From a virus (lineage: Duplodnaviria; Caudoviricetes), in the IMG/VR virus record IMGVR_UViG_2974792740_000001, positions 11,944-75,943 of that record: a DNA stretch of 64,000 nucleotides. One strand, 5' to 3'. Shown here one piece after another: positions 37,694 through 50,348 of the stretch. The notes below the pieces were generated by a model. That model saw only the letters and a list, made by a program, of their open reading frames with translations, had not been told where the DNA came from and did not search any database. The translations under genes and the position numbers were made by a program. Position 1 is the stretch's first letter. Each line of letters begins with the position of its first letter.

Positions 37694-38348
37694 CGATGAT
37701 GAGGTCGGCCTCAATTATCAGGCGCTCCGCATGTTGTGGCGGTCTCGGGCCATTCACCGGCAGGCCGTTACTGACTGGATGACCCAGCGCCCCACCGTCG
37801 ATGAAGTTGAGTTGCCCGAGGATGTGACGGAGAAGCTGCAACGCCTCGCCGCGCAGAACTCCCGCCGGCCTGACGCTGTGCAGCTCATTCAGCAAATCCC
37901 GTATGTGGTTGCGTGGTTTCGGGAATCGATGGTCGCTGGGTCTCATCCGGGCGGCGAAGAGGACATCAAGTCTTCTGCTGGCCCCTCGTCTCGCCCACCT
38001 TTTCGTGTGGCGTTCATGTCGGCTGCTGATCGTGAGGTGGCCGCTCTGGTGCATTGGTGTCACGAGTGTGGCGTCAGTGTGCGTGGCCCGGTGTACATGG
38101 TTGCCGGGTCTATCCGTGGTGTGTCGCCGCGTGATCCGAGTTCCCCGATCCGCCAGATGGCCGAAGAGTTGTCGGACGCTGTTTCGCGGTGGGGTGAACC
38201 GGAAGGTATCTACACCGACCCTGAGTTTGGTTTGTGGTCGATTCGTTCTGCGCACTACGGCATTTGGCCCGAGTTGGGGTCTTTGTTCACTGAGGATCCG
38301 GATGTTCCGGATCCGGATGATGATGTTGAGCCGGAAGGTTTGTTTTGA
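37656..38348 (+). CDS. Hypothetical protein
   Basis: 230-aa ORF; TTGA overlap with the next gene. Confidence 0.6.
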   Translation: MQYRDGHDPYTFDDDEVGLNYQALRMLWRSRAIHRQAVTDWMTQRPTVDEVELPEDVTEKLQRLAAQNSRRPDAVQLIQQIPYVVAWFRESMVAGSHPGGEEDIKSSAGPSSRPPFRVAFMSAADREVAALVHWCHECGVSVRGPVYMVAGSIRGVSPRDPSSPIRQMAEELSDAVSRWGEPEGIYTDPEFGLWSIRSAHYGIWPELGSLFTEDPDVPDPDDDVEPEGLF

Positions 38349-39292
38349 CAGAACTGATTGCAATGCGGGGCCTGCCTGGTTCCGGGAAGACCACCCGTGC
38401 TCGCCGAATCGCCGCCGCCACTGGGGCTGTCGTTGTCGGTCGTGACTTCGAACGCTTCCAGATGTTCGGCGAGTGGTGGACTGGCGGCAAACCCGAGCAC
38501 GAGGATGCAGTCACGGTCGCCCTGAACGCCAAGGTGCGAGCCTTGCTGAAGGCGAATCAATCTGTGGTCGTTGACAACACGCACATTCGCCTCGGTTACC
38601 TGAAGGATTGGGCGAAGGTCGCTTCGGAGTGTGGGGCCACGTTCCGGATTGAAGACGTGAAGACGGACGTTGAAGAGTGCATCCGCCGAGACAATGACCG
38701 TTTTCACAACTTCGGTGGCGACCGGGCGAGCTTGGGTGGCGACAGACTGGTGGGCGAGCAGGCGATTCGCCGAATGGCATCACGCATTGACTGGCGTATG
38801 CCGAAGCCGGTAGCGCCCATTGAGATCGAACCCGTTGACCACAAGGTTGCCGAAGAGCTGATGCTTCCCGGCGCGATCCTCGTGGACATCGACGGCACAC
38901 TCGCCCACATGACGGGGCGCAGCCCGTACGACTACAGCCGCGTTGGTGAAGACATGGTGGACTTCGCTGTTCGCGGGATCGTTCAGGACTACGAAGAACT
39001 CGGTTACGACATCATCGTGTGCTCGGGCCGTGACGACGAATGCCGCACCATGACCGTGGCATGGTTGCTCGCCAACGACATCCCGTTCCACAAGCTGCTC
39101 ATGCGGCCCACGGACGCCAAGGACGCCAACGGCAACAAACTCCCCGACTGGATCGTCAAATACAACCTGTTCAACGAGAACGTGCGCGGCAAGTACGACG
39201 TGGCATTCGTCCTCGACGACCGCAATCAGGTTGTGGACATGTGGCGCAAGCTCGGGCTGAAGTGTTTGCAGGTTGCCCCCGGCGACTTCTGA
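38345..39292 (+). CDS. Polynucleotide 5'-kinase / 3'-phosphatase (T4 PseT-like)
   Basis: GLPGSGKT P-loop; HAD DIDGTLA, SGR, LLMR, LDDR. Confidence 0.92.
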   Translation: MTELIAMRGLPGSGKTTRARRIAAATGAVVVGRDFERFQMFGEWWTGGKPEHEDAVTVALNAKVRALLKANQSVVVDNTHIRLGYLKDWAKVASECGATFRIEDVKTDVEECIRRDNDRFHNFGGDRASLGGDRLVGEQAIRRMASRIDWRMPKPVAPIEIEPVDHKVAEELMLPGAILVDIDGTLAHMTGRSPYDYSRVGEDMVDFAVRGIVQDYEELGYDIIVCSGRDDECRTMTVAWLLANDIPFHKLLMRPTDAKDANGNKLPDWIVKYNLFNENVRGKYDVAFVLDDRNQVVDMWRKLGLKCLQVAPGDF

Positions 39293-39462
39293 TGTACGTC
39301 GCGCCGGATCGTCCAGCTCTCGAATGCCAGGCGTGCGGTATGGCACTGCAAGCACTCACTGACGAGCAAGCCGCCGACATGGCACTCAATCCCTACAACT
39401 ACATCGCCTTTTGTGCCCCGTGTAAGCGCAAGGGCTATCACATAGAACCAGGATTCTTATGA
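39292..39462 (+). CDS. Small zinc-ribbon protein
   Basis: CQAC..CAPC; TGATG overlap. Confidence 0.6.
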   Translation: MYVAPDRPALECQACGMALQALTDEQAADMALNPYNYIAFCAPCKRKGYHIEPGFL

Positions 39463-40775
39463 CCAACAGTCTCTCTGTTGTCGGCAGTAGCAACTACGCC
39501 GCACAGATCGTCCGAGTGCCCGCCACCTACCCGCTCGACGGACTCGATAACCTCGTCGGCATCAAGGTTTTCAACAGCCAAATCCTCACCCAGAAGGGCG
39601 AAGTCGAACCGGGCGACCTCCGCGTCTACTTCCCCGCAGAGGTTCGCCTCTCCGACAAGTACCTGTCGGCCAACAACCTGTTCCGGGATCCGTTCCTCAA
39701 CCGGGACAGCACGGCCACACCCGGCTACTTCGAAACCAACGGTCGCGTCAAGGCAATCAAGCTGCGCGGGCACCGCTCGGACGGCCTGCTGATGCCGATC
39801 GAATCTCTGCTCGCCTTCGGTGCTCGCGGAGAGGATCTGGTTGAGGGTGCCGTGTTCGACACCATCAACGGGATCGAGATTTCCCGCAAGTATGAGGTGA
39901 AGACCAATGCGCCGGCCGATCCCTCAGCGAAGAAGGTGAAGAAGGCGTTCAAGCGGGTCACCACGAAGGTGTTCCCCGAGCACATCGACACCGACAACTT
40001 CTTCCGCAACCAGCACCTTCTCGACACGTCGCGGGAAGTCATCATCACCCAGAAGTTGCACGGCACGAGCATCCGTGTGGGGCGCGTTCCGGTGCTGCGC
40101 GAGATCGGCTGGGTGGAGCGCATCTTCAACAAGGTGGGTGGCCTGTTCGGCATCTCCACGGCTTCGCACGCCTACGAGGTTGTGTGTGGTTCGCGGAAGG
40201 TCATCAAGGATGTGACGAACCCGCGCAGCCAGCACTACTACGGCACGGACATCTGGTCACAGTACGGCATCCAGATCGGTGACCTGATCCCCGAGGGGTT
40301 CATCGTGTACGGCGAGTTGATCGGTTGGACGCCGGATGGCAAGCCGATTCAGAAGAACTACACCTACGACGTGCCGGTTGGTAAGCGTGAGCTGTACGTG
40401 TACCGGGTGGCTCGCGTGGATGTGAATGGCACGATGACGGATTTGTCGTGGGATGCGGTGCGTGAGTTTTGCGTTGAGCGTGGGCTGAAGCATGTGCCCG
40501 AGCTGTGGCGGATCAATGACGAGTACACGACAGCTTACGGTGAGGATCTTGAAGAGCACGTCTTGGAGCTGATGGACAAGCGTCACGCCGATCTCGATTG
40601 GCAGCCCAAGGATCCGCAGATTCCTTTGTCCGATCCGAAGACGGTTGATGAGGGTGTGTGCATCCGCCAGGAGCGGCTTGTTCCCACGATCCTGAAGGCG
40701 AAGTCGCCTGTGTTCTTGCAGCACGAAACCAAGCAGCTCGATACGGGCGAAGCCGACCTCGAAAGCGCAGCATGA
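39459..40775 (+). CDS. ATP-dependent RNA ligase (Rnl2/DRB0094-like) with N-terminal OB domain
   Basis: QKLHGTS (I), YGELIG (III), EGVCIR (IV), LKAKS (V). Confidence 0.88.
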   Translation: MTNSLSVVGSSNYAAQIVRVPATYPLDGLDNLVGIKVFNSQILTQKGEVEPGDLRVYFPAEVRLSDKYLSANNLFRDPFLNRDSTATPGYFETNGRVKAIKLRGHRSDGLLMPIESLLAFGARGEDLVEGAVFDTINGIEISRKYEVKTNAPADPSAKKVKKAFKRVTTKVFPEHIDTDNFFRNQHLLDTSREVIITQKLHGTSIRVGRVPVLREIGWVERIFNKVGGLFGISTASHAYEVVCGSRKVIKDVTNPRSQHYYGTDIWSQYGIQIGDLIPEGFIVYGELIGWTPDGKPIQKNYTYDVPVGKRELYVYRVARVDVNGTMTDLSWDAVREFCVERGLKHVPELWRINDEYTTAYGEDLEEHVLELMDKRHADLDWQPKDPQIPLSDPKTVDEGVCIRQERLVPTILKAKSPVFLQHETKQLDTGEADLESAA

Positions 40776-41623
40776 CAGTTCACCTGTACGCAGCCGACCT
40801 CACCGACAGGTCGAAACCACTCATCAACGTTCAACGCTTCCAGTTTCCCGGTGGCGAACAACACCTCCACATGCCCGCCCTGATCGACGGACACGAGTAC
40901 GAATGGGTTGCTGTAGTCAAGGGGGCCGACGCCAACGAACTCGTCACAGCGGGCCTCCTGGCCGACATCGCCTACCAGCGAGGGGAAGCATCCTCACTCC
41001 TGCTGCCCTACCTTCCGGCTGCACGGGCTGATCGGGGCCAGCCGTTCGCCCTCGACACCTACGCGAATGTCATTGGCGCACTCAACTTCGACGTGGTTGC
41101 CACTCTCGATGTTCACAGCCAGGTAGGCATCGATATGGAGTTCGGGGACTCCTACCATGTGCACCTGTCGGCCACTCCGCTTGTGGTTGCGGCGGTTGAG
41201 CATCAGGACAAGTTTGATGCTGTGATCGCTCCGGACTCTGGCGCTTTCGATCGTGCGCAGTCGGTGGCCCTGGCCCTGCGGGTGCCGGTGTACAGCGGCG
41301 TGAAGGAACGGGACTTCGCGACCGGGAAGCTCAGCAACTTCTATTACTCGGGTCCGACCGACGGCAATTTCCTTGTGGTCGATGACATCTGTGATGGTGG
41401 TGGCACGTTCGCCGGGTTTGCTGCGGTGTCGGGGATTCCTCGCGAGAACCTGTCGTTGTGGATCACGCATGGCATCTTCTCGAAGGGCTCTGCGTCGAAT
41501 TTGTTCCGCAATTACAAGGCTGTGTACACGACGGATTCGCATCCGGGTTCGGCGAATCTTCATGCGACTGTTCGTGTGCCGGTTGTGCCGCACATGTGGA
41601 AGCACGTAGCAGGAGGTCTGTGA
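40772..41623 (+). CDS. Ribose-phosphate pyrophosphokinase-like protein (possible Adps)
   Basis: FPGGEQH, LPYLPAARADR, LDVHS, APDSGA, VVDDICDGGGTF. Confidence 0.9.
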   Translation: MTVHLYAADLTDRSKPLINVQRFQFPGGEQHLHMPALIDGHEYEWVAVVKGADANELVTAGLLADIAYQRGEASSLLLPYLPAARADRGQPFALDTYANVIGALNFDVVATLDVHSQVGIDMEFGDSYHVHLSATPLVVAAVEHQDKFDAVIAPDSGAFDRAQSVALALRVPVYSGVKERDFATGKLSNFYYSGPTDGNFLVVDDICDGGGTFAGFAAVSGIPRENLSLWITHGIFSKGSASNLFRNYKAVYTTDSHPGSANLHATVRVPVVPHMWKHVAGGL

Positions 41624-41841
41624 TGGGTCGGATGCAAGTCAAGGATGTGGAGTCCACCAAGCGCGTTCTCTCTATGGCTGACGATCAGTCGAAGTTGATC
41701 CTAACGGAAGCGCTGGGATCTGGCGTTGCGGTCATAGAGGTTGCCGGTAGTTCCTACAGTGCGTACGCCAGCATTGTGCTCGACAAAGAGTCCGCAGTCA
41801 TTCTCGGTGAACGCCTCATCGAATTCGGAAGCCAACCCTGA
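41623..41841 (+). CDS. Hypothetical protein
   Basis: TGATG overlap. Confidence 0.5.
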   Translation: MGRMQVKDVESTKRVLSMADDQSKLILTEALGSGVAVIEVAGSSYSAYASIVLDKESAVILGERLIEFGSQP

Positions 41842-41849
41842 AAGGGAAC

Positions 41850-43337
41850 ATGACAAGCACACGTACCTATTTCGAACCCGTAGCGGCACTCTTCCAGACC
41901 GACGCCTACAAGCTCGGACACATCCAGCAATACCAGCTCGCCGGAAACGTCACCCGCGTCTACAGCAACTACACCAACCGCAAGAGTCGAATCCCCGGCG
42001 TCGACAACGTTGTCCACTTCGGCCTTCAGGCATTCATCCAGAAGAACCTCATGGAAGCGTTTGAACCGTTCTTCGAGTCCGATGAGGACGTGGTTGCCGA
42101 ACTGTACGAAGAGCGTGTCACGTCGATCCTGGGGCCGAATACGATCGGTTCCGATCACATCCGTGCACTGCACCGACTCGGGTATCTTCCGCTGCGGTTC
42201 TGTGCGGTCCCGGAAGGCACCCTCGTGCCCATCCGGATCCCCTCGTTCACGGTGGAGAACACTCTGCCTGAGTTCTTCTGGCTGACCAACTACATCGAGA
42301 CCGCCCTGTCGGCTGGTGTGTGGCAGGCGAGCACGTCGGCCACCATTGCCAGCGAGTACCGGCAGATCCTTGACACGGCGGCGTGGGAGACGGGTAGCAG
42401 CTTCGATGCTGTCGACTTCCAGGTTCACGATTTCAGCTACCGGGGAATGAGTTCCAATGAGTCTGCGCAGGTTTCGGGTGCGGCGCACCTGCTTTCGTTC
42501 TCCGGGACGGACTCTCTGGTCGCTCTCGATTGGATTGACCGCTACTACGGAGGCTCGGATTACGTTGCGGCGTCAGTCCCGGCGACAGAGCACAGTGTCA
42601 TGTGCACCGGAATCGCCAAGCTCGGTGAGCAGGAAATGTTCTCCAAGCTTCTCGACCTCTACCCGTCGGGGATCGTTTCCGTCGTGTCAGACACCTTCGA
42701 TCTGTGGCGTGTCCTCACGGAGTACCTGCCAGCACTGCGCACTAAGGTACTTGCGCGAGACGGGAAGCTAGTCATCCGCCCGGACTCGGGCGACCCGCAG
42801 AAGATCATCTGTGGCGACCCTGACGCCCCTGAGGGCAGCAATGAGTACCTGGGTGTGATCGGCCTGCTGGATCGCACGTTCGGTTCGACTCCGAACAAGC
42901 TCGGCTACTACGAGCTGGACTCGCACGTCGGCATCATCTACGGCGATTCGATCACCGTGGAGCGGGCAAAGGCGATCACTGACGATCTGGCTTCGCAGAA
43001 CTACGCGAGCACGAATGTGGTGTTCGGTGTCGGTAGCTTCACCTACCAGTACAACACGCGTGACACCTTCGGTTCGGCGATGAAGGCTACGTGGGCTGAG
43101 GTGGACGGTGAGGGTGTCAATCTGCTGAAAGACCCGATCACTGACGATGGCACGAAGAAGTCGGCTACGGGCCGTCTGGCGGTCAATGTGGATGACATGG
43201 GTGCCTGGACCCTGACCGAGAAGGCTAACGAATGGGAAGAGGCCCTGAGTGACCTTCAGCCCGTTTGGGAGAACGGTCAGTTCATCCAGCGTCAGACCTT
43301 CCAGGACGTGAGGAAGAAGCTCGCATACTGGGGGTGA
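41850..43337 (+). CDS. Nicotinamide phosphoribosyltransferase-like protein (possible Namat)
   Basis: TDAYKLGH, HDFSYRG, AAHLLSFSGTD, PATEHS, VVSDTFD, IRPDSGDP, IYGDSIT. Confidence 0.95.
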   Translation: MTSTRTYFEPVAALFQTDAYKLGHIQQYQLAGNVTRVYSNYTNRKSRIPGVDNVVHFGLQAFIQKNLMEAFEPFFESDEDVVAELYEERVTSILGPNTIGSDHIRALHRLGYLPLRFCAVPEGTLVPIRIPSFTVENTLPEFFWLTNYIETALSAGVWQASTSATIASEYRQILDTAAWETGSSFDAVDFQVHDFSYRGMSSNESAQVSGAAHLLSFSGTDSLVALDWIDRYYGGSDYVAASVPATEHSVMCTGIAKLGEQEMFSKLLDLYPSGIVSVVSDTFDLWRVLTEYLPALRTKVLARDGKLVIRPDSGDPQKIICGDPDAPEGSNEYLGVIGLLDRTFGSTPNKLGYYELDSHVGIIYGDSITVERAKAITDDLASQNYASTNVVFGVGSFTYQYNTRDTFGSAMKATWAEVDGEGVNLLKDPITDDGTKKSATGRLAVNVDDMGAWTLTEKANEWEEALSDLQPVWENGQFIQRQTFQDVRKKLAYWG

Positions 43338-43342
43338 CCTGA

Positions 43343-43882
43343 TTGGCGATCGACTACACCAAGCCGACTGCCGGTAGGGACTCGATGGCCGGAAAGTTGC
43401 TGGCGCAGAAACAGGGTCGCACTACTGGGCTACGCGACTCGGTGTCGTGGGGCGCGGAACGCGAACTGCTGATGCAGGTTGGCGAGCAGTTGAAAGCCAT
43501 ACACGGGGCGGTCGATGGACCCAAGCCGGTACAGAAGATTTCGTACAAGAAAGTACGCAAGCCTGATGTTTCATCGGCCCCCCGCTTCAAGGCCCTAAAG
43601 CCATGCCCACGGTGTGGCGCGTGGCGAGTCCACCGACTGGCCGAGCCCAACCCGGACCCACCCAACGTGGTCGACAACGGCGAAATCCTCTGCTCCGCAG
43701 ACGACATCAACGCCGAAGTCTACCTCGGGTGGGCCACCTCAACGACCGAGATTGTCGGCTACGGCAACCTTCAGCCAACGAGGACCATCAAGAACGGGCC
43801 GCGACTCGACCGCTTCGACGAACGAGGATTCGAGGTCATTCGCATCTGCCCAGAATGCGCACACACATGGGGTGAAATCTGA
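43343..43882 (+). CDS. Hypothetical zinc-ribbon protein
   Basis: CPRC..H and CPEC.H.W. Confidence 0.6.
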   Translation: MAIDYTKPTAGRDSMAGKLLAQKQGRTTGLRDSVSWGAERELLMQVGEQLKAIHGAVDGPKPVQKISYKKVRKPDVSSAPRFKALKPCPRCGAWRVHRLAEPNPDPPNVVDNGEILCSADDINAEVYLGWATSTTEIVGYGNLQPTRTIKNGPRLDRFDERGFEVIRICPECAHTWGEI

Positions 43883-44649
43883 ACACACACAAACAGATCG
43901 CATACGACAACCTGATGATGCTCGGCATAGCAGGATCGCAGCTCTACGGCACCAACCTGGACAACGGCGACAACGACCAGATGGGTGTTTGCCTGGAACC
44001 GCCCGCCTACGTGACTGGACTGGAAACCTTCGAGCAGTACCAGTACCATTCCGCCGGCAAGGACACTCGTTCCAGCGCAGACGATCTCGATCTCACGATC
44101 TACAGTCTCCGCAAATGGGCAAAGCTTGCAGCGGCAGGCAACCCCACGGTCCTGCTGTTGGGGTTCACTCCCGATGAGCTACTGCTCCATGACAGCCTGG
44201 ACGGTCGGATCCTTCGCTACTCGATGCACCGTTTCATGTCCCGGCAGGCTGCGGGCAAGTTCTACGGCTACCTGGAATCCCAACGCAAGCAGATGCTCGG
44301 TCTCACCGGACGTAAGCACAGCAACCGGCCAGAGCTGGTCGAGCAGTTCGGTTTCGACACCAAGTTCGCCTACCACGCAGTGAGACTCGGAATGCAAGGC
44401 GTCGAGTACCTGACGACGGGCGAGATGACGCTGCCCATGCGGGAAGAGGAACGCAACTACCTGATCGACATCAGGCAAGGCCGCGAGTCCTTCGACGATG
44501 TGGTCACGGTCATCAACCTGTACCAAGGGCTGCTGCTCAAGCTGATGCGTTCCGCCGAGCTGCCCCCGCGTGCCGACTATCAGTGGATTAATCGGTGGCT
44601 CACTGACACGTATGTGATCCACTGGAACGAGAGGGGCTATCTGCTCTGA
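43879..44649 (+). CDS. Pol-beta-family nucleotidyltransferase (PF10127/RlaP-like)
   Basis: GSQLYG..DNDQMGV, GNPTVL, FDTKFAYHAVRL; start inferred at CTG 43879 (first ATG 43915). Confidence 0.8.
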   Translation: MNTHKQIAYDNLMMLGIAGSQLYGTNLDNGDNDQMGVCLEPPAYVTGLETFEQYQYHSAGKDTRSSADDLDLTIYSLRKWAKLAAAGNPTVLLLGFTPDELLLHDSLDGRILRYSMHRFMSRQAAGKFYGYLESQRKQMLGLTGRKHSNRPELVEQFGFDTKFAYHAVRLGMQGVEYLTTGEMTLPMREEERNYLIDIRQGRESFDDVVTVINLYQGLLLKLMRSAELPPRADYQWINRWLTDTYVIHWNERGYLL

Positions 44650-44891
44650 CGGTCTGGCTCGACGAAACCGAGGCAATCACATTCATAGGGCGGCACAAAC
44701 GCACCCTACGCAGATGGCGCAAGCATCGGATCGTTGTAGCCCGTCGCACCAAGTACGGCTACGAGTACGACAAACAATCCCTGCGATCCGCGAAACTGCG
44801 TATGGCGCAAAGGGCTGACGAACAGGAGTACAACGGTGGACGACCGCGAAAATACGCCCCCCAGCCAGGAGACATGGATTACCTCTTCTGA
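44646..44891 (+). CDS. MerR-like HTH protein with CTG start (absent from ORF track)
   Basis: TVWLDETEAITFIGRHKRTLRRWRKHRIV..YEYDKQSL; CTGA overlap with upstream stop. Confidence 0.65.
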   Translation: MTVWLDETEAITFIGRHKRTLRRWRKHRIVVARRTKYGYEYDKQSLRSAKLRMAQRADEQEYNGGRPRKYAPQPGDMDYLF

Positions 44892-45036
44892 CTACGACCG
44901 CGCTGTGCACATCATCGCCGAATCGGCGTACGGGCGTGAGCCCACTGCCGAGGATTTGAACCAGGCTGAGAAGCTGGTCGCGGTGTTCTACAGCCTCGTG
45001 GATGCGAAGCTAATCGCGTGTCCCCCTGGGGAGTAA
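44836..45036 (+). CDS. Hypothetical protein
   Basis: AGGAG RBS before GTG; overlaps the HTH gene by 56 nt. Confidence 0.45.
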   Translation: MDDRENTPPSQETWITSSDYDRAVHIIAESAYGREPTAEDLNQAEKLVAVFYSLVDAKLIACPPGE

Positions 45037-45100
45037 TGTTGTAAGTGAATCGGGGTTGAGAGAGCGCCCAAGACATTGAACGGCGCTCCCCACTCCGAGG

Positions 45101-45156
45101 CTGACTGCGTTGCCGATTGGATCGGAATCAACGCGGGTTCGAATCCCGCCAGTCAG
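45101..45156 (+). ncRNA. D-armless tRNA-like RNA
   Basis: CTGACTG/CAGTCAG 7-bp stem; GCGGG-TTCGAAT-CCCGC T-arm; one central hairpin. Confidence 0.55.
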
Positions 45157-45159
45157 ACG

Positions 45160-45290
45160 GGCGCAGATGCGTAGATTGTGGTTACTTCACTAATTGGATA
45201 TGCAGGTTCAAGTCCTGCCGTCAAGCCTCTCAGGCCGCTGAGCCTTGATGCTCGACGTTTGTTCCACGATCGACCAAGTTCCCTCGCGCC
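45160..45290 (+). ncRNA. Y RNA-like unit 1 (with tRNA-like module)
   Basis: Terminal stem; ATGCGTAG..GTTACTTC..AAGTTCC motif; T-arm GCAGG-TTCAAGT-CCTGC followed by a loop-closed acceptor stem. Confidence 0.7.
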
Positions 45291-45298
45291 AACTACCA

Positions 45299-45371
45299 CC
45301 CCAGATGCGAAGGCTGCACAGTTACTTCAATTGGATGAAACGCACACTGTGTGCCATCCAGTCCCCTGGGG
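45299..45371 (+). ncRNA. Y RNA-like unit 2 (short)
   Basis: CCCCAG/CTGGGG stem; ATGCGAAG..GTTACTTC..AGTCCC. Confidence 0.65.
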
Positions 45372-45382
45372 TTACATCTTCA

Positions 45383-45530
45383 CGTTCAGATGCGTAGAGA
45401 CGTTGGTTACTTCCATGCTAAGGACGAGGTTGCGGGTTCGAATCCCGCCCAGTCAGGCCGCAAGGCAGGTCAGGTAGCTCAATCGGCTAGAGCGCGTAAA
45501 CACACCAACACTCGGCAAGTTCCCTGAACG
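45383..45530 (+). ncRNA. Y RNA-like unit 3 (YrlA-type permuted tRNA module)
   Basis: CGTTCAG/CTGAACG stem; T-arm, GCAA-capped hairpin, then D-arm TA-GCTC-AATCGGCTA-GAGC. Confidence 0.8.
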
Positions 45531-45542
45531 ATCAAACATTCC

Positions 45543-45627
45543 GCCGTGATGCGAAGCACGAACGTTACTTCATCAGTTGCTAAAGAAACCGAACAGAAAC
45601 ACGTTCATGCAACTCAGTTCACACGGC
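45543..45627 (+). ncRNA. Y RNA-like unit 4 (short)
   Basis: GCCGTG/CACGGC stem; ATGCGAAG..GTTACTTC..AGTTCA; inner AGTTGC/GCAACT. Confidence 0.65.
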
Positions 45628-45654
45628 ACAATTCAACACACAGGAGCAGAAGGA

Positions 45655-47253
45655 ATGTCGCGCTACAACACCGCCACCAAGGCCCGACCCGCACAAAAGT
45701 CGAGCGCCATCAAGGCCGGTACGAAGCCCAAAACCAACCCACAGGGTGGAATCGGATTCAAGCGCGGCGACGCCAAGTCCGAACTGTTCCTCTCCGCTGC
45801 AACCTCATTCATGCAGCCCAAATTCTATGAAACCGAAAGCGACCTGCGCGCACGTCAGCGCAAGCTCATCGCCAAGGTGGCCGTCTCCGACCCGGAGTGG
45901 ACTTTCGAGTTCCTGACGTGGCTCCGCACCGAGGGCAACCTGCGCACCGGGTCGCTCACCCTGGCCGCTGACGCGGTTCGGGAACGCCTGAAGGCGGGCA
46001 AAACGGGCTGGAACCGGCAGATCATCTCCACGGTCCTGCGCCGGCCTGACGAGCCTGGCGAAATGCTGGCCTACTGGACAACCAACTACGGTCGCAACGT
46101 GCCGATCTCGGTCAAGCGTGGCATCGCGGACGTCATTGAGGGCCAGTACAACGAGCGCAACTTTCTGAAGTACGACAGCGCGTCTCGCGCCTTCCGGTTC
46201 GGTGATGTGATCGAGCTGACCCATCCGAAGATGACGGGCAGCCGGGGTGATCTCGCCTCGTATGCGATCACTGTGGGTAAGGGCCATGACGCCGAGATCC
46301 CGTCTTCCCTCTCGATGATCCGAAAGAATCGCAACCTGCGTCAGTGGACTCCCGGCGAGATCGTGGAGCGCGCAAAGTACCGGGGCGACGATCTGATGCC
46401 ACTGAGCGACGTGCTCAGCGCAGCAGGTATGACGTGGGAAGATATTCCCGCACTCGTCAACGGCCCCTGGACGCCCGAACTGTGGGAAGCCGCCATCCCC
46501 AACATGGGCGTGATGGCCCTCATGCGGAACTTGAGAAACTTCGACCAAGTCGGCATCTCCAAGCAAGCCGCAAAGATGGTCCGCGACAAACTGTCCGACC
46601 CTGAGGCTGTCCGCAAGTCCCGAATCCTTCCCCTCCGTGCACTGTCCGCCTACAAGGCTGTCAGCAATTCGCGCTGGCACGGCGCACTCGAAGACGCCGT
46701 GGACATCACTCTGGATAACGTGCCCGCCCTGAAGGGCCGCACGCTGATCCTGGTGGACTGCTCGGGCTCCATGTTCTTCGGTAACGGAACTGATCTGAGC
46801 TACGCAGAGTCGGCAGCAGTGTTCGGTACTGCACTCGCGGCGAAGGCAGAGAAGGCCACCCTCGTGCACTACGGGTCCAGCTCGCGAGAGGTTCCGGTCC
46901 CACGTGGCGCTTCGGTGTTGGAGATGGCCCGCTCGGTGCACAGCATGGGCGGCACAGCCACCGCAGCAGCGATCCAGCAGCACTACAACGGCCACGATCG
47001 TGTCATCCTGCTGACTGATGAGCAGCACAACGGTGGCGGCTACGGATGGGGCTCGCGCTACGTGTCTCAGAACCCGAGCGACTACGTGCCAAAGCACATT
47101 CCGCTCATCACCTTCAACCTCGCCGGATACAAGCTCGGCGGCGTCAAGGACGGCCCTAATCGGCTGACATTCTCGTCGCTGTCCGACTCGGCCTGGAAGC
47201 TTGTTGACATGTTCGGCAACGGCATGTCCGGATGGCCCTGGGAGGCAAACTGA
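45655..47253 (+). CDS. rsr: Ro60/TROVE-domain RNA-binding protein
   Basis: TROVE motifs (LRRPDEPGEMLAYW, KYD, MALMRNLRNF, RILPLR) and VWA MIDAS DCSGS..TDEQ. Confidence 0.93.
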   Translation: MSRYNTATKARPAQKSSAIKAGTKPKTNPQGGIGFKRGDAKSELFLSAATSFMQPKFYETESDLRARQRKLIAKVAVSDPEWTFEFLTWLRTEGNLRTGSLTLAADAVRERLKAGKTGWNRQIISTVLRRPDEPGEMLAYWTTNYGRNVPISVKRGIADVIEGQYNERNFLKYDSASRAFRFGDVIELTHPKMTGSRGDLASYAITVGKGHDAEIPSSLSMIRKNRNLRQWTPGEIVERAKYRGDDLMPLSDVLSAAGMTWEDIPALVNGPWTPELWEAAIPNMGVMALMRNLRNFDQVGISKQAAKMVRDKLSDPEAVRKSRILPLRALSAYKAVSNSRWHGALEDAVDITLDNVPALKGRTLILVDCSGSMFFGNGTDLSYAESAAVFGTALAAKAEKATLVHYGSSSREVPVPRGASVLEMARSVHSMGGTATAAAIQQHYNGHDRVILLTDEQHNGGGYGWGSRYVSQNPSDYVPKHIPLITFNLAGYKLGGVKDGPNRLTFSSLSDSAWKLVDMFGNGMSGWPWEAN

Positions 47254-47254
47254 C

Positions 47255-47350
47255 ATGGACCCCCTGACAATGCTTGGCCTCGTCGCTATCGGCATCTTCA
47301 TCGGCGGAGTCTTCGGAATCTCCGCGTACGACTACTTTCTCAATCATTGA
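47255..47350 (+). CDS. 31-aa membrane peptide (absent from ORF track)
   Basis: MDPLTMLGLVAIGIFIGGVFGISAYDYFLNH; TTGA overlap with next gene. Confidence 0.55.
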   Translation: MDPLTMLGLVAIGIFIGGVFGISAYDYFLNH

Positions 47351-48063
47351 GTGAGCTACACGATGCCGCGCTGAACTACCTGTACGAAGGATTCCAAGTC
47401 TTCCCGCTATGGCCTGGCGGGAAAACCCCACTCGTCGAGAACGGCTTGCACGAAGCAACCGACAATCCCACCACCGTGGACAAATGGTGGGGACGCTGGC
47501 CGCAAGCCAACATCGGGGTGAGGGTGCCAGAACGAGTGATCGTGATCGACATAGACCCCCGCTCCGGGGGCGCACTCGACCAGCTTGGAAACATCCCAAG
47601 AACACGCACAGCCGCAACAGGTGGCGGCGGATGGCATCTCCTATTCAGGCATGTTGGACGAGCACGAGGGAAGCTGGATGAGGCCCGTGGTATCGACATC
47701 AAAACTAACAGCGGCTATATCGTTGGTGCGCCAAGCGTTCACGAGTCTGGCCGACGCTATCGCTGGACTGATCGCGGCCCTATCGCAGACCTTCCGGCAT
47801 CCCTGCTCCGTCGTGTATCCCCTGCTCCCCCGCAGGTGGTGTGGGACGACCCTGGTGTGGGCTCCACCAAGGGATTGGTTGCCACTGTCGCGGATGCGGT
47901 TGAGGGCGAACGGAACCACAAATTCTTCTGGGCTGCGTGTCGGGCCTATCAAGAGGGGGCTGATCCTGAGTTGATGGGCGCGTTGGTGAATGCTGCTCGT
48001 TCGATTGGGTTGACTGAGCGTGAGATTGGGTTGTCCCTTCGTTCTGCTCAGGCCCGCGTGTAG
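47347..48063 (+). CDS. Bifunctional DNA primase/polymerase (Prim-Pol) with helical C-terminal domain
   Basis: VFPLWPGGKTP, ANIG, VIDIDPR, TGGGGWHLLF, GIDIK..GYIVGAPS, GERNH. Confidence 0.9.
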   Translation: MSELHDAALNYLYEGFQVFPLWPGGKTPLVENGLHEATDNPTTVDKWWGRWPQANIGVRVPERVIVIDIDPRSGGALDQLGNIPRTRTAATGGGGWHLLFRHVGRARGKLDEARGIDIKTNSGYIVGAPSVHESGRRYRWTDRGPIADLPASLLRRVSPAPPQVVWDDPGVGSTKGLVATVADAVEGERNHKFFWAACRAYQEGADPELMGALVNAARSIGLTEREIGLSLRSAQARV

Positions 48064-48163
48064 CTGAGTAGAAGTTTCGGCTCCGTTTCATGGACACTCC
48101 AACGTCAATCAAACGGGCAGTCCCTTTCTAGGACAAAAGTCCTGTGCGGCAACACAGGCATCT

Positions 48164-48238
48164 GCCCGCGTAGCTTAATGGTAAAGCCCCGGCTTGTGGT
48201 GCCGGTGATTACGGTTCGACTCCGTGCGCGTGGAACCA
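48164..48238 (+). tRNA. tRNA-His(GTG), imperfect acceptor stem
   Basis: D, anticodon (CCGGC-TTGTGGT-GCCGG) and T arms canonical; ends ACCA. Confidence 0.75.
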
Positions 48239-48239
48239 A

Positions 48240-48375
48240 CGGCCGATAGTCCAATGGAGTGGTCCCCACATATCGAACTAGCGGGCGTGCACGCCGACGG
48301 CTAGCGAATTTCTGTGAAGGGTCCAGGACGCCCCAAATGGTGGAGGAAATGCGGGTTCGAATCCCGCGAGGCCGA
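48240..48375 (+). ncRNA. tRNA-Pro(TGG)-like RNA with ~65-nt D-loop insertion
   Basis: C1:G72, A73, GTCC/GGAC D-stem, canonical T-arm; insert forms a nested hairpin. Confidence 0.55.
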
Positions 48376-48494
48376 CGAAATGACCGGACGACCGTGGAAG
48401 CCGGTTGGTCATGAACGAGCGCAACTTGCCTGCCGGTGGCTAGGTTGCGTCTGGTAGACGGTGGGGCTTCCGGAAACAATTCCCCACCTCGCAA

Positions 48495-48571
48495 TCGCAT
48501 GTAGTTCAAAGGGTAGAGCAACCGGGCGTACGCTGAACCGGGGAATGTGGGTTCGAATCCCACCATGCGGG
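48495..48571 (+). ncRNA. tRNA-like RNA with 12-nt anticodon loop
   Basis: 7-bp acceptor stem, D and T arms canonical; loop GCGTACGCTGAA. Confidence 0.65.
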
Positions 48572-48603
48572 CTGCGCTTGATCGTGCGCGTAAACGATCG
48601 GCT

Positions 48604-48676
48604 GCCTTAGAAACCGAATTGGCTAGGTGCCTGACTTCCAATCAGGATTTTGCGGGTTCAAGTCCCGTCTAAGGCT
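48604..48676 (+). tRNA. tRNA-Gly(TCC)
   Basis: GCCTTAG/CTAAGGC; CCTGA-CTTCCAA-TCAGG; U73. Confidence 0.9.
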
Positions 48677-48810
48677 CCGGCCCTGCTGCTGGGGACCGAT
48701 ATGCCGAGTAACCAAGACTCGGTGCAGTAGCGCGGTGGTGGTGGCTAGATTCCAACAACACGTCACTAGGGTTGCAACCTGCCGATAGCGCTGTCGGCTG
48801 AATAGCTCCA

Positions 48811-48885
48811 CTCTCCGTAGCTCAGATGGTTTAGAGCAGGGCACTCTTAATGCTCGGGTCGCAGGTTCGAACCCTGCCGGGGAGA
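48811..48885 (+). tRNA. tRNA-Lys(CTT)
   Basis: Full cloverleaf; GGGCA-CTCTTAA-TGCTC. Confidence 0.93.
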
Positions 48886-48961
48886 CGGCCCTCCTGCTGG
48901 GGTTATACGCCAGATCGCTACTGGCACAGCAGGGCATCAGGCAACGTCGGGCCTGATGTTT

Positions 48962-49032
48962 CGTCGCATAAGTCTCAGCGGCAAGAGCTGGGGGTATTCC
49001 CCTGGTCGCCGGTTCGATTCCGGCTGCGACAC
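48962..49032 (+). ncRNA. Initiator-tRNA-like RNA with 4-nt anticodon loop
   Basis: C1xA72 mismatch, G-C-rich anticodon stem, loop TATT, canonical T-arm. Confidence 0.6.
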
Positions 49033-49228
49033 GATGGGGTGGTATTCCCAGTTAGCACAACCAGTCGACGGTCCGTGCTTGAAAAATGACCAGGGCGGCA
49101 TTGCAGTGCCAACTAGCCACGACGGACTAAGCCCGATGAAGGCCGTCTAACCCCTCGCTGGTCAAGCCCTGCAAGGTACGGGCCGGGGACAATTTGGAGT
49201 GCACATCAAGCGGGGGTGCACTCATTCG

Positions 49229-49312
49229 GGGCTTGTGGCGGAATTGGCAGACGCGCCGGATTCAAAATCCGGAGTCCTTTCGGACGTGTGGGTTCGACCC
49301 CCACCAGGCCCA
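49229..49312 (+). tRNA. tRNA-Leu(CAA)
   Basis: CCGGA-TTCAAAA-TCCGG; long variable arm; A73. Confidence 0.93.
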
Positions 49313-49313
49313 C

Positions 49314-49568
49314 ATGGCACTGAGACCGCCACCACTGGCAGAACCCCATGAGGTTGATGACCTCTCGCATCTCGAAGCACTGAGGCGACTTTCAGCCATC
49401 AGCGCGTACACGTACGCGGCCCACAATCAAGTGGATGCGGACGTGAACTCAATGGCAACGAAGGGCTGTTGGGCACCACCAATCGAGCACGGTACCTACA
49501 AGCCGGGTCACGCACCTTCGGGTGCGTATGCCCGCCTGATCGGCCTGCTCACGAAGGGAAAGAAGTAG
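49314..49568 (+). CDS. Hypothetical protein
   Basis: ATG 2 nt after the tRNA-Leu discriminator base. Confidence 0.45.
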   Translation: MALRPPPLAEPHEVDDLSHLEALRRLSAISAYTYAAHNQVDADVNSMATKGCWAPPIEHGTYKPGHAPSGAYARLIGLLTKGKK

Positions 49569-49571
49569 CAC

Positions 49572-49757
49572 ATGTTTGGACGTAAGAAGAAGCGCGCCAC
49601 CAGCGCCACGCCCTCGCGCAGCAGCTACGACAGCTGCAGCAGCACCACCCCGTATGGCGGCTACAGCAACAGCGGCTACGACAGCGGCTCGTCCTACTCG
49701 TCGTCGTGTGACAGCTCGTCGTCCTCGTCTTCGTGTGACAGCGGCGGAAGCTTCTGA
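49572..49757 (+). CDS. Ser-rich small protein
   Basis: SSYSSSCDSSSSSSSCDSGG; TGATG overlap with next gene. Confidence 0.55.
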   Translation: MFGRKKKRATSATPSRSSYDSCSSTTPYGGYSNSGYDSGSSYSSSCDSSSSSSSCDSGGSF

Positions 49758-49948
49758 TGGGTACCGCGCTGGTAATCGGGGGGATTCTCCTCGGGGCGCT
49801 GCTCATCGGCGCGGCGGTCGCATGTGTCGCAAAGGCTGTGCTCGACTCGCCTCTGTCGCAGGGTGTTGCGCAGGGAAGCTCCACCTACAAGGGTGGGTTT
49901 GACCTCAGTCATCCCACTGGGGTTGCGCTACTGGTGGCGGCTACCTGA
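49757..49948 (+). CDS. Small membrane protein
   Basis: Hydrophobic N-terminus. Confidence 0.55.
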   Translation: MGTALVIGGILLGALLIGAAVACVAKAVLDSPLSQGVAQGSSTYKGGFDLSHPTGVALLVAAT

Positions 49949-50043
49949 TGGAGTTCCTGGCAATCGTTGGCGCAGTGACATGCATCGCCGTAATCTGTTA
50001 TGTCGCAGTCGGCGTCGGGGTTCTCATCACGCTCTCGCGGTGA
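49948..50043 (+). CDS. 31-aa membrane peptide (absent from ORF track)
   Basis: MEFLAIVGAVTCIAVICYVAVGVGVLITLSR; TGATG overlap. Confidence 0.55.
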   Translation: MEFLAIVGAVTCIAVICYVAVGVGVLITLSR

Positions 50044-50051
50044 GCCCGTAT

Positions 50052-50122
50052 TCCCTGATCGTCTAACGGCAGGACGCCGCGCTCTGGACGCGGAGATTGA
50101 GGTTCGAATCCTTGTCGGGGAG
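50052..50122 (+). tRNA. tRNA-Gln(CTG)
   Basis: U1:A72, G73; CCGCG-CTCTGGA-CGCGG. Confidence 0.93.
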
Positions 50123-50183
50123 CTTGCCCTTGGGATGGGGTATAGCGCGGTTGGCCGAACCGCGATAAACAAAATGGCCGTAA

Positions 50184-50262
50184 CCGGGTAACCGCATGGA
50201 GCGGAATGGGACTGTAAATCCCAGGCGGAAACGCACCGGAGGTTCGATTCCTTCTACCCGGA
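50184..50262 (+). tRNA. tRNA-Tyr(GTA) with C1:G72
   Basis: TGGGA-CTGTAAA-TCCCA; long variable arm; atypical short 8-9 connector. Confidence 0.85.
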
Positions 50263-50275
50263 CCCAACAGACGAA

Positions 50276-50313
50276 ACGCCAGCAGACATTCATCGTGCCT
50301 GCTGGCGTCTTTT
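50276..50313 (+). terminator. Intrinsic terminator after the tRNA array
   Basis: ACGCCAGCAG/CTGCTGGCGT then CTTTT. Confidence 0.75.
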
Positions 50314-50348
50314 GTTGTCTCAGAAAGGTAATCGCTTGGCGCTAACTG

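Follow-up and report, generated by a model that had tools for sequence, protein, structure and literature searches.

A co-oriented block of RNA-repair, NAD+, Ro/Y RNA and tRNA genes in an actinophage, probably a set of separable modules

The DNA that we analyzed (the window) is 64 kb long and corresponds to positions 11944-75943 of a 75.9-kb virus record, IMGVR_UViG_2974792740_000001. Within some 12 kb of it, genes for RNA-repair enzymes, an NAD+ module, a Ro protein with Y-like RNAs, and a tRNA array are packed together, and this block is the subject of the present analysis. From 38345 to 50318, all genes are on the + strand, in the order Pnkp, small open reading frame (ORF), RNA ligase, Adps, Namat, ORF, RlaP, helix-turn-helix (HTH)-like ORF, Y-like RNAs, Ro, PrimPol, tRNA array, and terminator. 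The closest public relative of the window is Gordonia phage Rabbitrun (Nevillevirus, Deeyouvirinae), cultured on Gordonia terrae, which is 87.5% identical over 88% of the stretch that an earlier note on this DNA had flagged. The Octobienvirus phages Syleon, Kudefre, Sephiroth, and Octobien14 are remoter relatives. The block lies among the early or middle genes of a Gordonia siphophage of the Deeyouvirinae, close to Rabbitrun. What we read directly from these sequences is which genes are present, the motifs and stems of the RNAs, synteny, and which relatives have or lack a part; for the proteins of the block, PHROGs and NCBIfam agree with the Pfam identities. Every part listed in the earlier note is present on the + strand where that note had placed it. 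The Adps and Namat pair, PrimPol, the HTH-like ORF, and the terminator were missing from its list.

Repair enzymes and the NARP1 pair

Pnkp (38345-39292) is predicted to combine a 5′-kinase with a 3′-phosphatase. It matches AAA_33 (E 4.8e-22) and HAD_PNKP (E 3.7e-50) in Pfam and phrog_505 in PHROGs. The N-terminal kinase motif, GLPGSGKT at residues 9-16, has the P-loop pattern GxxxxGK[ST], and the C-terminal HAD phosphatase, whose HAD_PNKP match spans the full profile, carries DIDGT, in agreement with DxDxT. Its best match in the PDB is Pnkp1 (4xrp, E 6e-41), and T4 Pnk (1ltq) is found at E 4e-25. Both domains and their catalytic motifs are intact, as the earlier reading of this gene as a kinase/phosphatase would have it. 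The proposed RlaP-like nucleotidyltransferase (43915-44649) was likewise borne out: this Pol-beta-type protein matches PF10127 (E 8.8e-28) with 98.1 bits, above the curated cut-off of 23, and belongs to phrog_388. A search of PDB sequences with RlaP returned no matches. The Pseudomonas RlaP adds one or two nucleoside monophosphates to RNA 3′-OH ends and favors damaged RNA ends (PMC12776372).

The third enzyme, an ATP-dependent RNA ligase (39459-40775), had been taken for an Rnl2-like protein, and this we had to revise. Its nucleotidyltransferase domain (PF09414) is C-terminal, at residues 192-413, and is preceded by an N-terminal OB domain (PF21189), so that the domain order of Rnl2 is not found; motif I, KLHGTS (KxxG), is intact. 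The protein weakly matches TIGR02306, the DRB0094 (DraRnl) model. Both phmmer and a profile search of the PDB came back empty for the ligase, and a fold search was therefore needed. With an AlphaFold2 model (predicted local distance difference test score, 81), the top 13 Foldseek matches were all Naegleria NgrRnl (E 3.8e-15), over both domains and about 430 columns; the template modeling scores are only 0.35-0.44, owing to domain orientation and insertions. The match to the T4 Rnl2 fold was confined to the nucleotidyltransferase part (E 7e-8). Pfam and the fold match thus agree on an Rnl5 (NgrRnl/DraRnl) build, a family often found in actinophages, those of mycobacteriophage clusters E and J among them.

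Nested in the repair cassette are two genes of NAD+ metabolism. Adps (40772-41623), a homologue of phosphoribosyl pyrophosphate (PRPP) synthetases and putatively the first NARP1 enzyme, matches Pribosyltran in Pfam and phrog_619 (E 5e-63); its PDB matches are PRPP synthetases (E 3e-12), and we set its start from the length of the Rabbitrun gene. Namat (41850-43337; 495 aa), the putative nicotinamide ADP-ribose transferase and second NARP1 enzyme, is NAMPT-like in Pfam. Its best PDB match is the SpbetaL1 Namat, 9W5W, at 466 bits, versus 236 bits for NAMPT, and in the alignment it keeps the residues equivalent to clamp residues R40, F392, and Y396 of SpbetaL1 Namat. These three residues give Namat its ADPR-PP specificity (PMC12774641). 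A clamp-bearing Namat adjoining a PRPS-like Adps, here a pair at 40772-43337, identifies the two genes by sequence as NARP1, a known stand-alone NAD+ module. Adps and Namat alone were also matched in other Gordonia phage clusters.

The Ro protein and its Y-like RNAs

Downstream of the repair cassette lies a gene for a Ro60/Rsr-like protein of 532 aa (45655-47253), in which a TROVE domain (PF05731, E 7.7e-16) is followed by a vWA domain; the vWA match (VWA_2, E 7e-4) is below its cut-off, and we scored the TROVE-then-vWA architecture as present with this match included. The PDB matches are the Ro60 of phage phiLo (9kop, E 3e-19), Deinococcus radiodurans Rsr (E 1.6e-7), and human Ro60 (E 1.5e-3). 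Because the protein scored 39.8 bits against the NCBIfam Rsr model, which has a cut-off of 900, we regard it as a distant Rsr member and not an equivalog. Ro is 92% identical to its counterpart in Rabbitrun, 51% to that of Gordonia phage VanLee, and 41% to that of Streptomyces phage BRock. A search for loci related to Ro returned only Rabbitrun's own record. The longest ORF begins at 45577; the start is most likely the ATG at 45655, which stands behind AGGAG and gives an N terminus, MSRYNTAT, that matches MGRYNTAG of VanLee. The annotated Ro start of Rabbitrun (10288 in our locus L001) is probably 48 nt too early. We had considered autoregulation of Ro through the last Y-like RNA overlapping the Ro start, and dropped it when the start was moved to 45655, that RNA ending at 45627.

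Four Y-like RNA units precede Ro: A (45160-45290), B (45298-45372), C (45383-45530), and D (45543-45627), the last just upstream of the Ro ribosome-binding site. Their common layout is a closing stem, AUGCG(A/U)AG, a second stem, UUACUUC, a variable part, the other strand of the second stem, AGU(U/C)C, and the other strand of the closing stem. We count exactly four copies of the composite motif ATGCGNAG-N5-14-TACTTC in the 64 kb, where chance alone would give 0.01. In all four units the closing stem, of 6-7 bp, stands directly 5′ of AUGCG(A/U)AG, and the four stems all pair with different sequences. A bulge of the Ro-binding type, the general mark of Y RNAs, can be assigned from the sequence to each unit, as CGAA in B and D and as CGUA in A and C. 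Unit A consists of the closing stem, AUGCGUAG, stem 2, UUACUUC, a T arm without a D arm, and a variable hairpin. Simple hairpins with AUGCGAAG make up units B and D (fold z-scores, −2.7 and −2.9, respectively). Unit C is of the YrlA type, its T arm preceding its D arm in a permuted arrangement. It matched Rfam YrlA (RF02553) with 44.1 bits (E 1.7e-8), short of the gathering score of 69; units A, B, and D gave no match to this model. Chen et al. (2014) recognized YrlA by a distance of <4 kb from Ro, the same strand, E < 5e-5, and a T arm followed by a D arm, and all of these features hold for unit C, which precedes Ro by 125 nt on the same strand and aligns over both the T arm and the D arm. 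Its single-sequence fold is no better than that of shuffled sequences, and its structural support is conservation only.

The same arrangement recurs in other phages. Four units with unrelated closing stems also lie upstream of Ro in Rabbitrun, VanLee, BRock, and the IMG/VR locus L090, and all of these have, like the window, sub-threshold YrlA matches upstream of Ro. Besides the three named phages, four IMG/VR contigs have 2-4 Y units next to Ro. Most of the 119 matches in an IMG/VR scan with the Y motif were single chance matches and were set aside; four matches in L056 fall in a protein repeat and are not RNA. Two public annotations of relatives look wrong at these arrays: the small ORFs gp93 and gp94 of Rabbitrun overlie its Y-RNA array (L001, 9378-10113), and the "tRNA-Arg(tct)" of VanLee (L010, 6716-6787) is part of a YrlA-like unit. 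YrlA-like RNAs adjoining Ro have been reported in 22 phages (PMC4201824). The Ro of phage phiLo lowers the activity of host PNPase and binds its two upstream Yrl RNAs at a CGAA bulge (PMC12135203).

The tRNA array and tRNA look-alikes

ARAGORN and Rfam call seven tRNAs in the block. Six of them are canonical, as the earlier note had it: tRNA-His(GUG) at 48163-48238 (Rfam, 51.8 bits), tRNA-Gly(UCC) at 48604-48678 (58.7 bits), tRNA-Lys(CUU) at 48811-48886 (60.3 bits), tRNA-Leu(CAA) at 49229-49313 (57.1 bits), tRNA-Gln(CUG) at 50052-50123 (53.1 bits), and tRNA-Tyr(GUA) at 50184-50264 (35.5 bits). The last is a class II tRNA with a short D loop; it is kept in Rabbitrun (39.4 bits) and annotated in Syleon, Octobien14, and Sephiroth. 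The seventh call, which we term M3 (48495-48572; 42.3 bits), has normal acceptor, D, and T arms and a 12-nt palindromic anticodon loop. It is one of four arm-defective tRNA mimics that had been noted before and that we also find, M1, M2, M3, and M5, none of which has the four arms, 5-bp stem, and 7-nt loop with U33 of a canonical tRNA. M4 is a fifth look-alike.

M1 (45101-45157) is a minihelix with a 7-bp acceptor-like stem, a small hairpin, and a T arm, without D or anticodon arms, and ends 2 nt before Y unit A. Its acceptor stem differs from that of Rabbitrun by two compensatory changes (CTGACTG/CAGTCAG versus CTGATCG/CGATCAG). In the cloverleaf of M2 (48240-48375), about 65 nt are inserted into the D loop, and the anticodon loop is distorted and lacks U33; ARAGORN calls M2 a tRNA only after ~48253-48317 has been removed. 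It is 98% identical in Rabbitrun between flanks that cannot be aligned. Its single-sequence fold does not exceed that of shuffles, leaving conservation as the structural support. M3 is not kept in Rabbitrun, where the slot holds a different degenerate tRNA-like sequence. M4 (~48721-48792), called by neither ARAGORN nor Rfam, aligns with Rabbitrun's intact tRNA-Trp and is a decayed tRNA-Trp, a pseudogene. M5 (48962-49032) has acceptor, D, and T arms and an anticodon arm collapsed to a GGGGG-UAUU-CCCCU hairpin with a 4-6-nt loop; ARAGORN finds it only at a relaxed threshold, with a 2-nt "anticodon." Its acceptor and T arm are kept in Rabbitrun, where the element is annotated as tRNA-Gln (36 bits). 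Conservation of the look-alikes, which bears on a refuting point of the earlier note, holds in part: M1, M2, and M5 are kept in Rabbitrun and are better conserved than their flanks, M3 is lineage specific, and M4 has decayed. Judged by the sequences, slots of the array turn over quickly, because they vary among relatives: M3 is absent from Rabbitrun, the tRNA-Trp has decayed here, and the gene that Sephiroth carries there has an anticodon loop of 8 nt. Some look-alikes are dying genes.

The Sephiroth gene in the tRNA-Trp slot (L018, 8082-8156) is annotated ccag, and its 8-nt loop could in principle read four bases; the slot holds a normal tRNA-Trp in Octobien14 (L017, 9540-9612) and in Rabbitrun and the decayed copy in the window. 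Directly 3′ of M5 is a non-coding element of about 160 nt (49033-49195) that is 97.6% identical in Rabbitrun, again between unalignable flanks. The 3′ 104 nt of it are 89% identical in Syleon, where they lie between tRNA-Gly and tRNA-Lys. The element has no Rfam match, its substitutions have no codon periodicity, and it folds no better than shuffles, so that conservation is its only structural support. Exact 17-mer matches to it in IMG/VR contigs L011 and L012 do not align and were discarded as chance. The 3′ trailers of tRNA-Gly (48679-48731) and tRNA-Lys (48887-48934) have CGGCCCTNCTGCTGGGG in common. Relative to Rabbitrun, the Lys trailer has two compensatory changes, CCTGCTG/CAGCAGG to CCTGTTG/CAACAGG and GCCAG/CTGGC to GTCAG/CTGAC, and because of these we regard both trailers as conserved and structured. 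Syleon, Octobien14, and Sephiroth have, 13 nt 3′ of tRNA-Lys, a T-arm hairpin, GGGGGttcgattCCCTC, that stands alone, with no other tRNA parts (L009, 9353; L017, 9940; L018, 8452). The tRNA array of BRock (L016, 10079-10242 and 14103-14183) contains a near-threshold manA RNA match (49.7 bits versus a gathering score of 55.2) and an 81-nt match to both ends of the tmRNA model (64.5 bits), which is the tRNA-like domain alone.

The block has several other features. A conserved phage ORF of 56 aa (39292-39462; phrog_14795, E 2.7e-21) follows Pnkp, and its slot is also occupied in Rabbitrun, Syleon, Octobien14, and Sephiroth. An ORF of 179 aa after Namat (43343-43882) matched only phrog_15197, of unknown function (E 1e-9), and had no Pfam match above threshold. 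The HTH-like small ORF (44652-44891) is an open frame with a weak HTH_17 match (E 0.043), and its syntenic counterpart is annotated as helix-turn-helix in Syleon, Octobien14, and Sephiroth. A PrimPol-domain protein (47347-48063; PF09250, E 1.1e-36) follows Ro. Within the tRNA array, a 61-aa ORF (49572-49757) encodes a Ser/Cys/Tyr/Gly-rich peptide with a basic N terminus and is followed by a 63-aa hydrophobic ORF (49757-49948); neither has a family match. The block is closed by an intrinsic-terminator-like hairpin (50276-50318), with a 10-bp stem, ACGCCAGCAG/CTGCTGGCGT, and then a T run. A terminator scan recovered the inner part of this stem, and this only strong terminator of the block stands after the last tRNA.

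Separable modules, rival readings and known systems

The earlier note had proposed one integrated system for tRNA protection and repair. Comparison with relatives upholds some of its associations and breaks up the whole. Syleon, Octobien14, and Sephiroth keep Pnkp, the small ORF, the ligase, Adps, Namat, the ORF, RlaP, HTH, and the tRNAs in identical order, and neither Ro nor PrimPol is found anywhere in their genomes. Because these sisters retain everything else in order, Ro, the Y RNAs, and PrimPol are a 3.2-kb insertion in the Nevillevirus line. PrimPol, found among the Deeyouvirinae tested only in Rabbitrun, is part of this insertion, with no evident role in RNA repair. In BRock and JustBecause, RlaP and Pnkp are tens of kb from Ro, and in the flanks examined of the IMG/VR loci L076, L090, L115, and L130, Ro and Y units occur without Pnkp, Rnl, or RlaP. 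A check across actinophages, also suggested beforehand, gave a divided answer: RlaP and a Pnkp-type phosphatase are encoded by four of four Ro-bearing lineages tested, and also by Ro-free relatives, and in BRock and JustBecause they lie far from Ro. What did stand is that Ro/Y arrays are within or adjoining tRNA genes in most independent phage lineages examined and that Pnkp recurs next to RlaP. The gene content of these genomes suggests a loose functional guild rather than an obligate machine.

We therefore favor, as a probable reading, a co-oriented anti-defence island made of at least four separable modules of known kinds. The genes share one strand and are probably co-transcribed as far as the terminator (50276-50318). 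Pnkp, RlaP, and the ligase plausibly make up a healing, trimming, and sealing set for broken tRNA: Pnkp would remove a 2′,3′-cyclic or 3′-phosphate and phosphorylate the 5′-OH of tRNAs cut by host nucleases, RlaP would restore one or two lost 3′ nucleotides, and the Rnl5-type ligase would seal the 3′-OH/5′-P break. Adps and Namat would restore NAD+, using ADP-ribose and nicotinamide, once host NADase defences have fired. The Ro ring protein and its four tandem Y RNAs, each with a CG(A/U)A-type bulge, would bind host PNPase, and the resulting ribonucleoproteins (RNPs) would change or damp 3′-to-5′ RNA decay; by analogy with phiLo and bacterial Ro RNPs, this is their most likely role. The fast-turning-over array would top up tRNAs that are likely to be cut or depleted, the phage tRNAs refilling the pool (PMC10264068). 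The look-alikes without working anticodon arms are a mixed set, some of them decaying tRNA genes. The conserved ones have most likely kept only the outline of acceptor and T arm, as cutting marks at which host RNase P and RNase Z would cleave the long precursor beside the Y RNAs and other small RNAs. Activities, processing roles, and any cooperation between modules are what we infer from the observed genes, motifs, and synteny.

Several points weigh against this modular reading or its details. Neighbors recur in pairs: Pnkp adjoins RlaP in BRock and is near it in VanLee, a ligase is next to Ro in JustBecause, and Ro/Y arrays have tRNA genes around them in BRock, JustBecause, L076, and L130, which hints at more coupling than a pure mosaic predicts. 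A sigma-70 promoter scan of the block, uninformative for actinophages, found no promoters, and for that reason co-transcription is only inferred. How well a ligase of the NgrRnl type, known for sealing nicks in duplexes, would suit breaks in an anticodon loop is uncertain. Recent exchange, and not selection, could account for M2, M5, and the 160-nt element being nearly identical in Rabbitrun, and covariation support for the look-alikes and this element is thin, as only two or three sequences exist.

The integrated version, in which Ro-Y RNPs sort damaged tRNAs for decay or for repair by Pnkp, RlaP, and ligase and anticodon-defective mimics decoy host anticodon nucleases, draws on the presence of all parts together on one strand before a single terminator, on the Ro/Y arrays among tRNA genes in several phage lineages, and on the three look-alikes kept in Rabbitrun. 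No proposal of phage tRNA decoys was found among the papers searched. We nevertheless hold this version to be very unlikely. Sister phages keep everything else without Ro and Y RNAs, and repair genes are scattered in other Ro-bearing phages. Anticodon nucleases (PrrC, colicins, and VapC) read the anticodon stem-loop, and M1, M2, M3, and M5 have lost or distorted exactly this part; M4 is a decayed gene, and M3 is lineage specific. The decoy role is thus a new but unsupported idea, which we disfavor because the look-alikes have lost the loop that these nucleases read; if they were decoys at all, they would have to act on factors that recognize the acceptor end or elbow. The link of Ro and Y RNAs to RNA repair, which the earlier note took as established, is indeed known from bacterial RNA repair operons, and a Salmonella operon has Ro and Y RNAs together with an RNA ligase that responds to tRNA halves (PMC7790460). 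A broader version would make the block a single co-transcribed RNA-salvage pathway, with Ro-Y RNPs shielding broken tRNAs from host PNPase while these await resealing by Pnkp, RlaP, and the Rnl5-type ligase and with M1, M2, and M5 functional, either as RNase P/Z punctuation that frees the Y RNAs or as decoys of toxins that recognize the acceptor end or elbow of tRNA, not its anticodon. To this, too, we assign only a slight chance.

Coupling could also exist without decoys, Ro-Y RNPs sequestering or damping host PNPase so that tRNA halves survive for resealing, with Ro/Y as an optional booster. The phiLo Ro-Yrl-PNPase complex lowers PNPase activity by about 70-80% in vitro (PMC12135203), and PNPase is implicated in tRNA-fragment decay in Salmonella (PMC7790460). 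In each of the four Ro-bearing actinophages tested, genes for RlaP and a Pnkp phosphatase are found at some place in the genome, and a ligase adjoins Ro in JustBecause. The co-occurrence is not specific, however, since Ro-free relatives also have RlaP and Pnkp, and the sample is four lineages with no phylogenetic control; we consider this coupling unlikely, if less so than the two versions above. About equally doubtful, in our view, is that the block is mostly housekeeping, its tRNAs adjusting codon supply in a phage with a lower G+C content than its host, its odd pieces decaying, and Pnkp, ligase, and RlaP serving the phage's own metabolism. Leu(CAA) and Gly(UCC) do read codons that are rare in high-G+C hosts, tRNA slots range from intact to broken among close relatives, and the block is surrounded by replication and nucleotide-metabolism genes (RusA, a methyltransferase, ThyX, and RNR). 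Yet Lys(CUU), Gln(CUG), His, and Tyr read common codons, a Namat that has its ADPR-PP clamp intact is an enzyme dedicated to anti-defence, M1, M2, and M5 are better conserved than their flanks, and RlaP favors damaged RNA ends.

The sole biochemical study of a phage Ro with its Y RNAs, that of phiLo, points to capture of host PNPase. Here the Ro/Y module lies directly between a tRNA repair cassette of the ATP-ligase type and a tRNA array, and the cultured Rabbitrun with its natural Ro-free sisters makes a ready comparison set. Such a set could ask whether Ro/Y helps tRNA repair, protects phage RNAs, or does something unrelated. Fast turnover of slots leaves tRNA-shaped RNAs behind, and some, being conserved, may have gained new roles. 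If the modules are independent, the block is a well-stocked anti-defence island that is useful for annotation.

Parts of the block have known counterparts. In T4, as may be the case here, Pnkp heals and an ATP-dependent ligase, Rnl1, seals tRNA cut by a host anticodon nuclease, and T4 also encodes the RlaP-family NrdC.11 and phage tRNAs; by contrast, the present ligase has the Rnl5 build with an N-terminal OB domain and is not Rnl1, the genes are contiguous, and Ro/Y and NARP1 are in the block. Mycobacteriophages Cjw1 and Omega have Pnkp with an RNA ligase, and cluster E and J mycobacteriophages share the family of the present ligase. The rsr-yrlBA-rtcBA operon of Salmonella combines Ro, Y RNAs, one of them with a tRNA-like domain, an RNA ligase, and a link to broken tRNA (PMC7790460). 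There, the RtcB 3′-P ligase and RtcA cyclase are under RtcR control, whereas here Pnkp, RlaP, a 5′-P ligase, and four Y RNAs are found, with no RtcR, RtcA, or RtcB. NARP1 of phages also has adjoining PRPS-like and Namat genes with the clamp kept (bioRxiv 10.1101/2024.02.11.579819; PMC12774641); here a small extra ORF lies between Adps and Namat, and the pair is nested in an RNA-repair cassette.

For the Ro/Y module, the Ro60 of Thermus phage phiLo is the closest solved relative and likewise has Y-like RNAs directly upstream with CGAA in a stem-bulge-stem (PMC12135203). It has two Yrl RNAs, compared to four Y RNAs here, of which two have CGUA and one is a full YrlA with T and D arms. YrlA and YrlB of Mycobacterium smegmatis and mycobacteriophages are similar in lying upstream of Ro on the same strand and in their tRNA-like T and D module (PMC4201824; RF02553). 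The 5′ sequence UUAC..CUUC..AAUGG is common to the present Y units and M. smegmatis YrlA, as judged from a published probe sequence, and processing of YrlA and YrlB from one precursor may, by analogy, be a further likeness. The present units differ in scoring below the Rfam gathering threshold, in outer stems that depart from the Rfam consensus, and in the lack of a D arm in three of four.

Jumbo-phage gene sets have the same repertoire of tRNAs, ATP-dependent ligases, Pnk, RlaP, TROVE with a tRNA-like partner, and NAD+ salvage, and Iyer et al. (2021) described phage tRNAs, RNA ligases, Pnk, RlaP, TROVE, and NAD+ salvage as one counter-defence theme (PMC7824862). The suggestion that the combination had not been described was therefore too strong: the family of each module, the overall theme (PMC7824862), and a cellular Ro-Y-ligase operon (PMC7790460) are already known. 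Unlike the jumbo-phage sets, the parts here are all in one 12-kb co-oriented block of a 76-kb siphophage. What sets the block apart is this composition, in which Ro/Y is joined to a Pnkp-RlaP-5′-P-ligase route in place of RtcB/RtcA, together with tRNAs and conserved tRNA-shaped RNAs.

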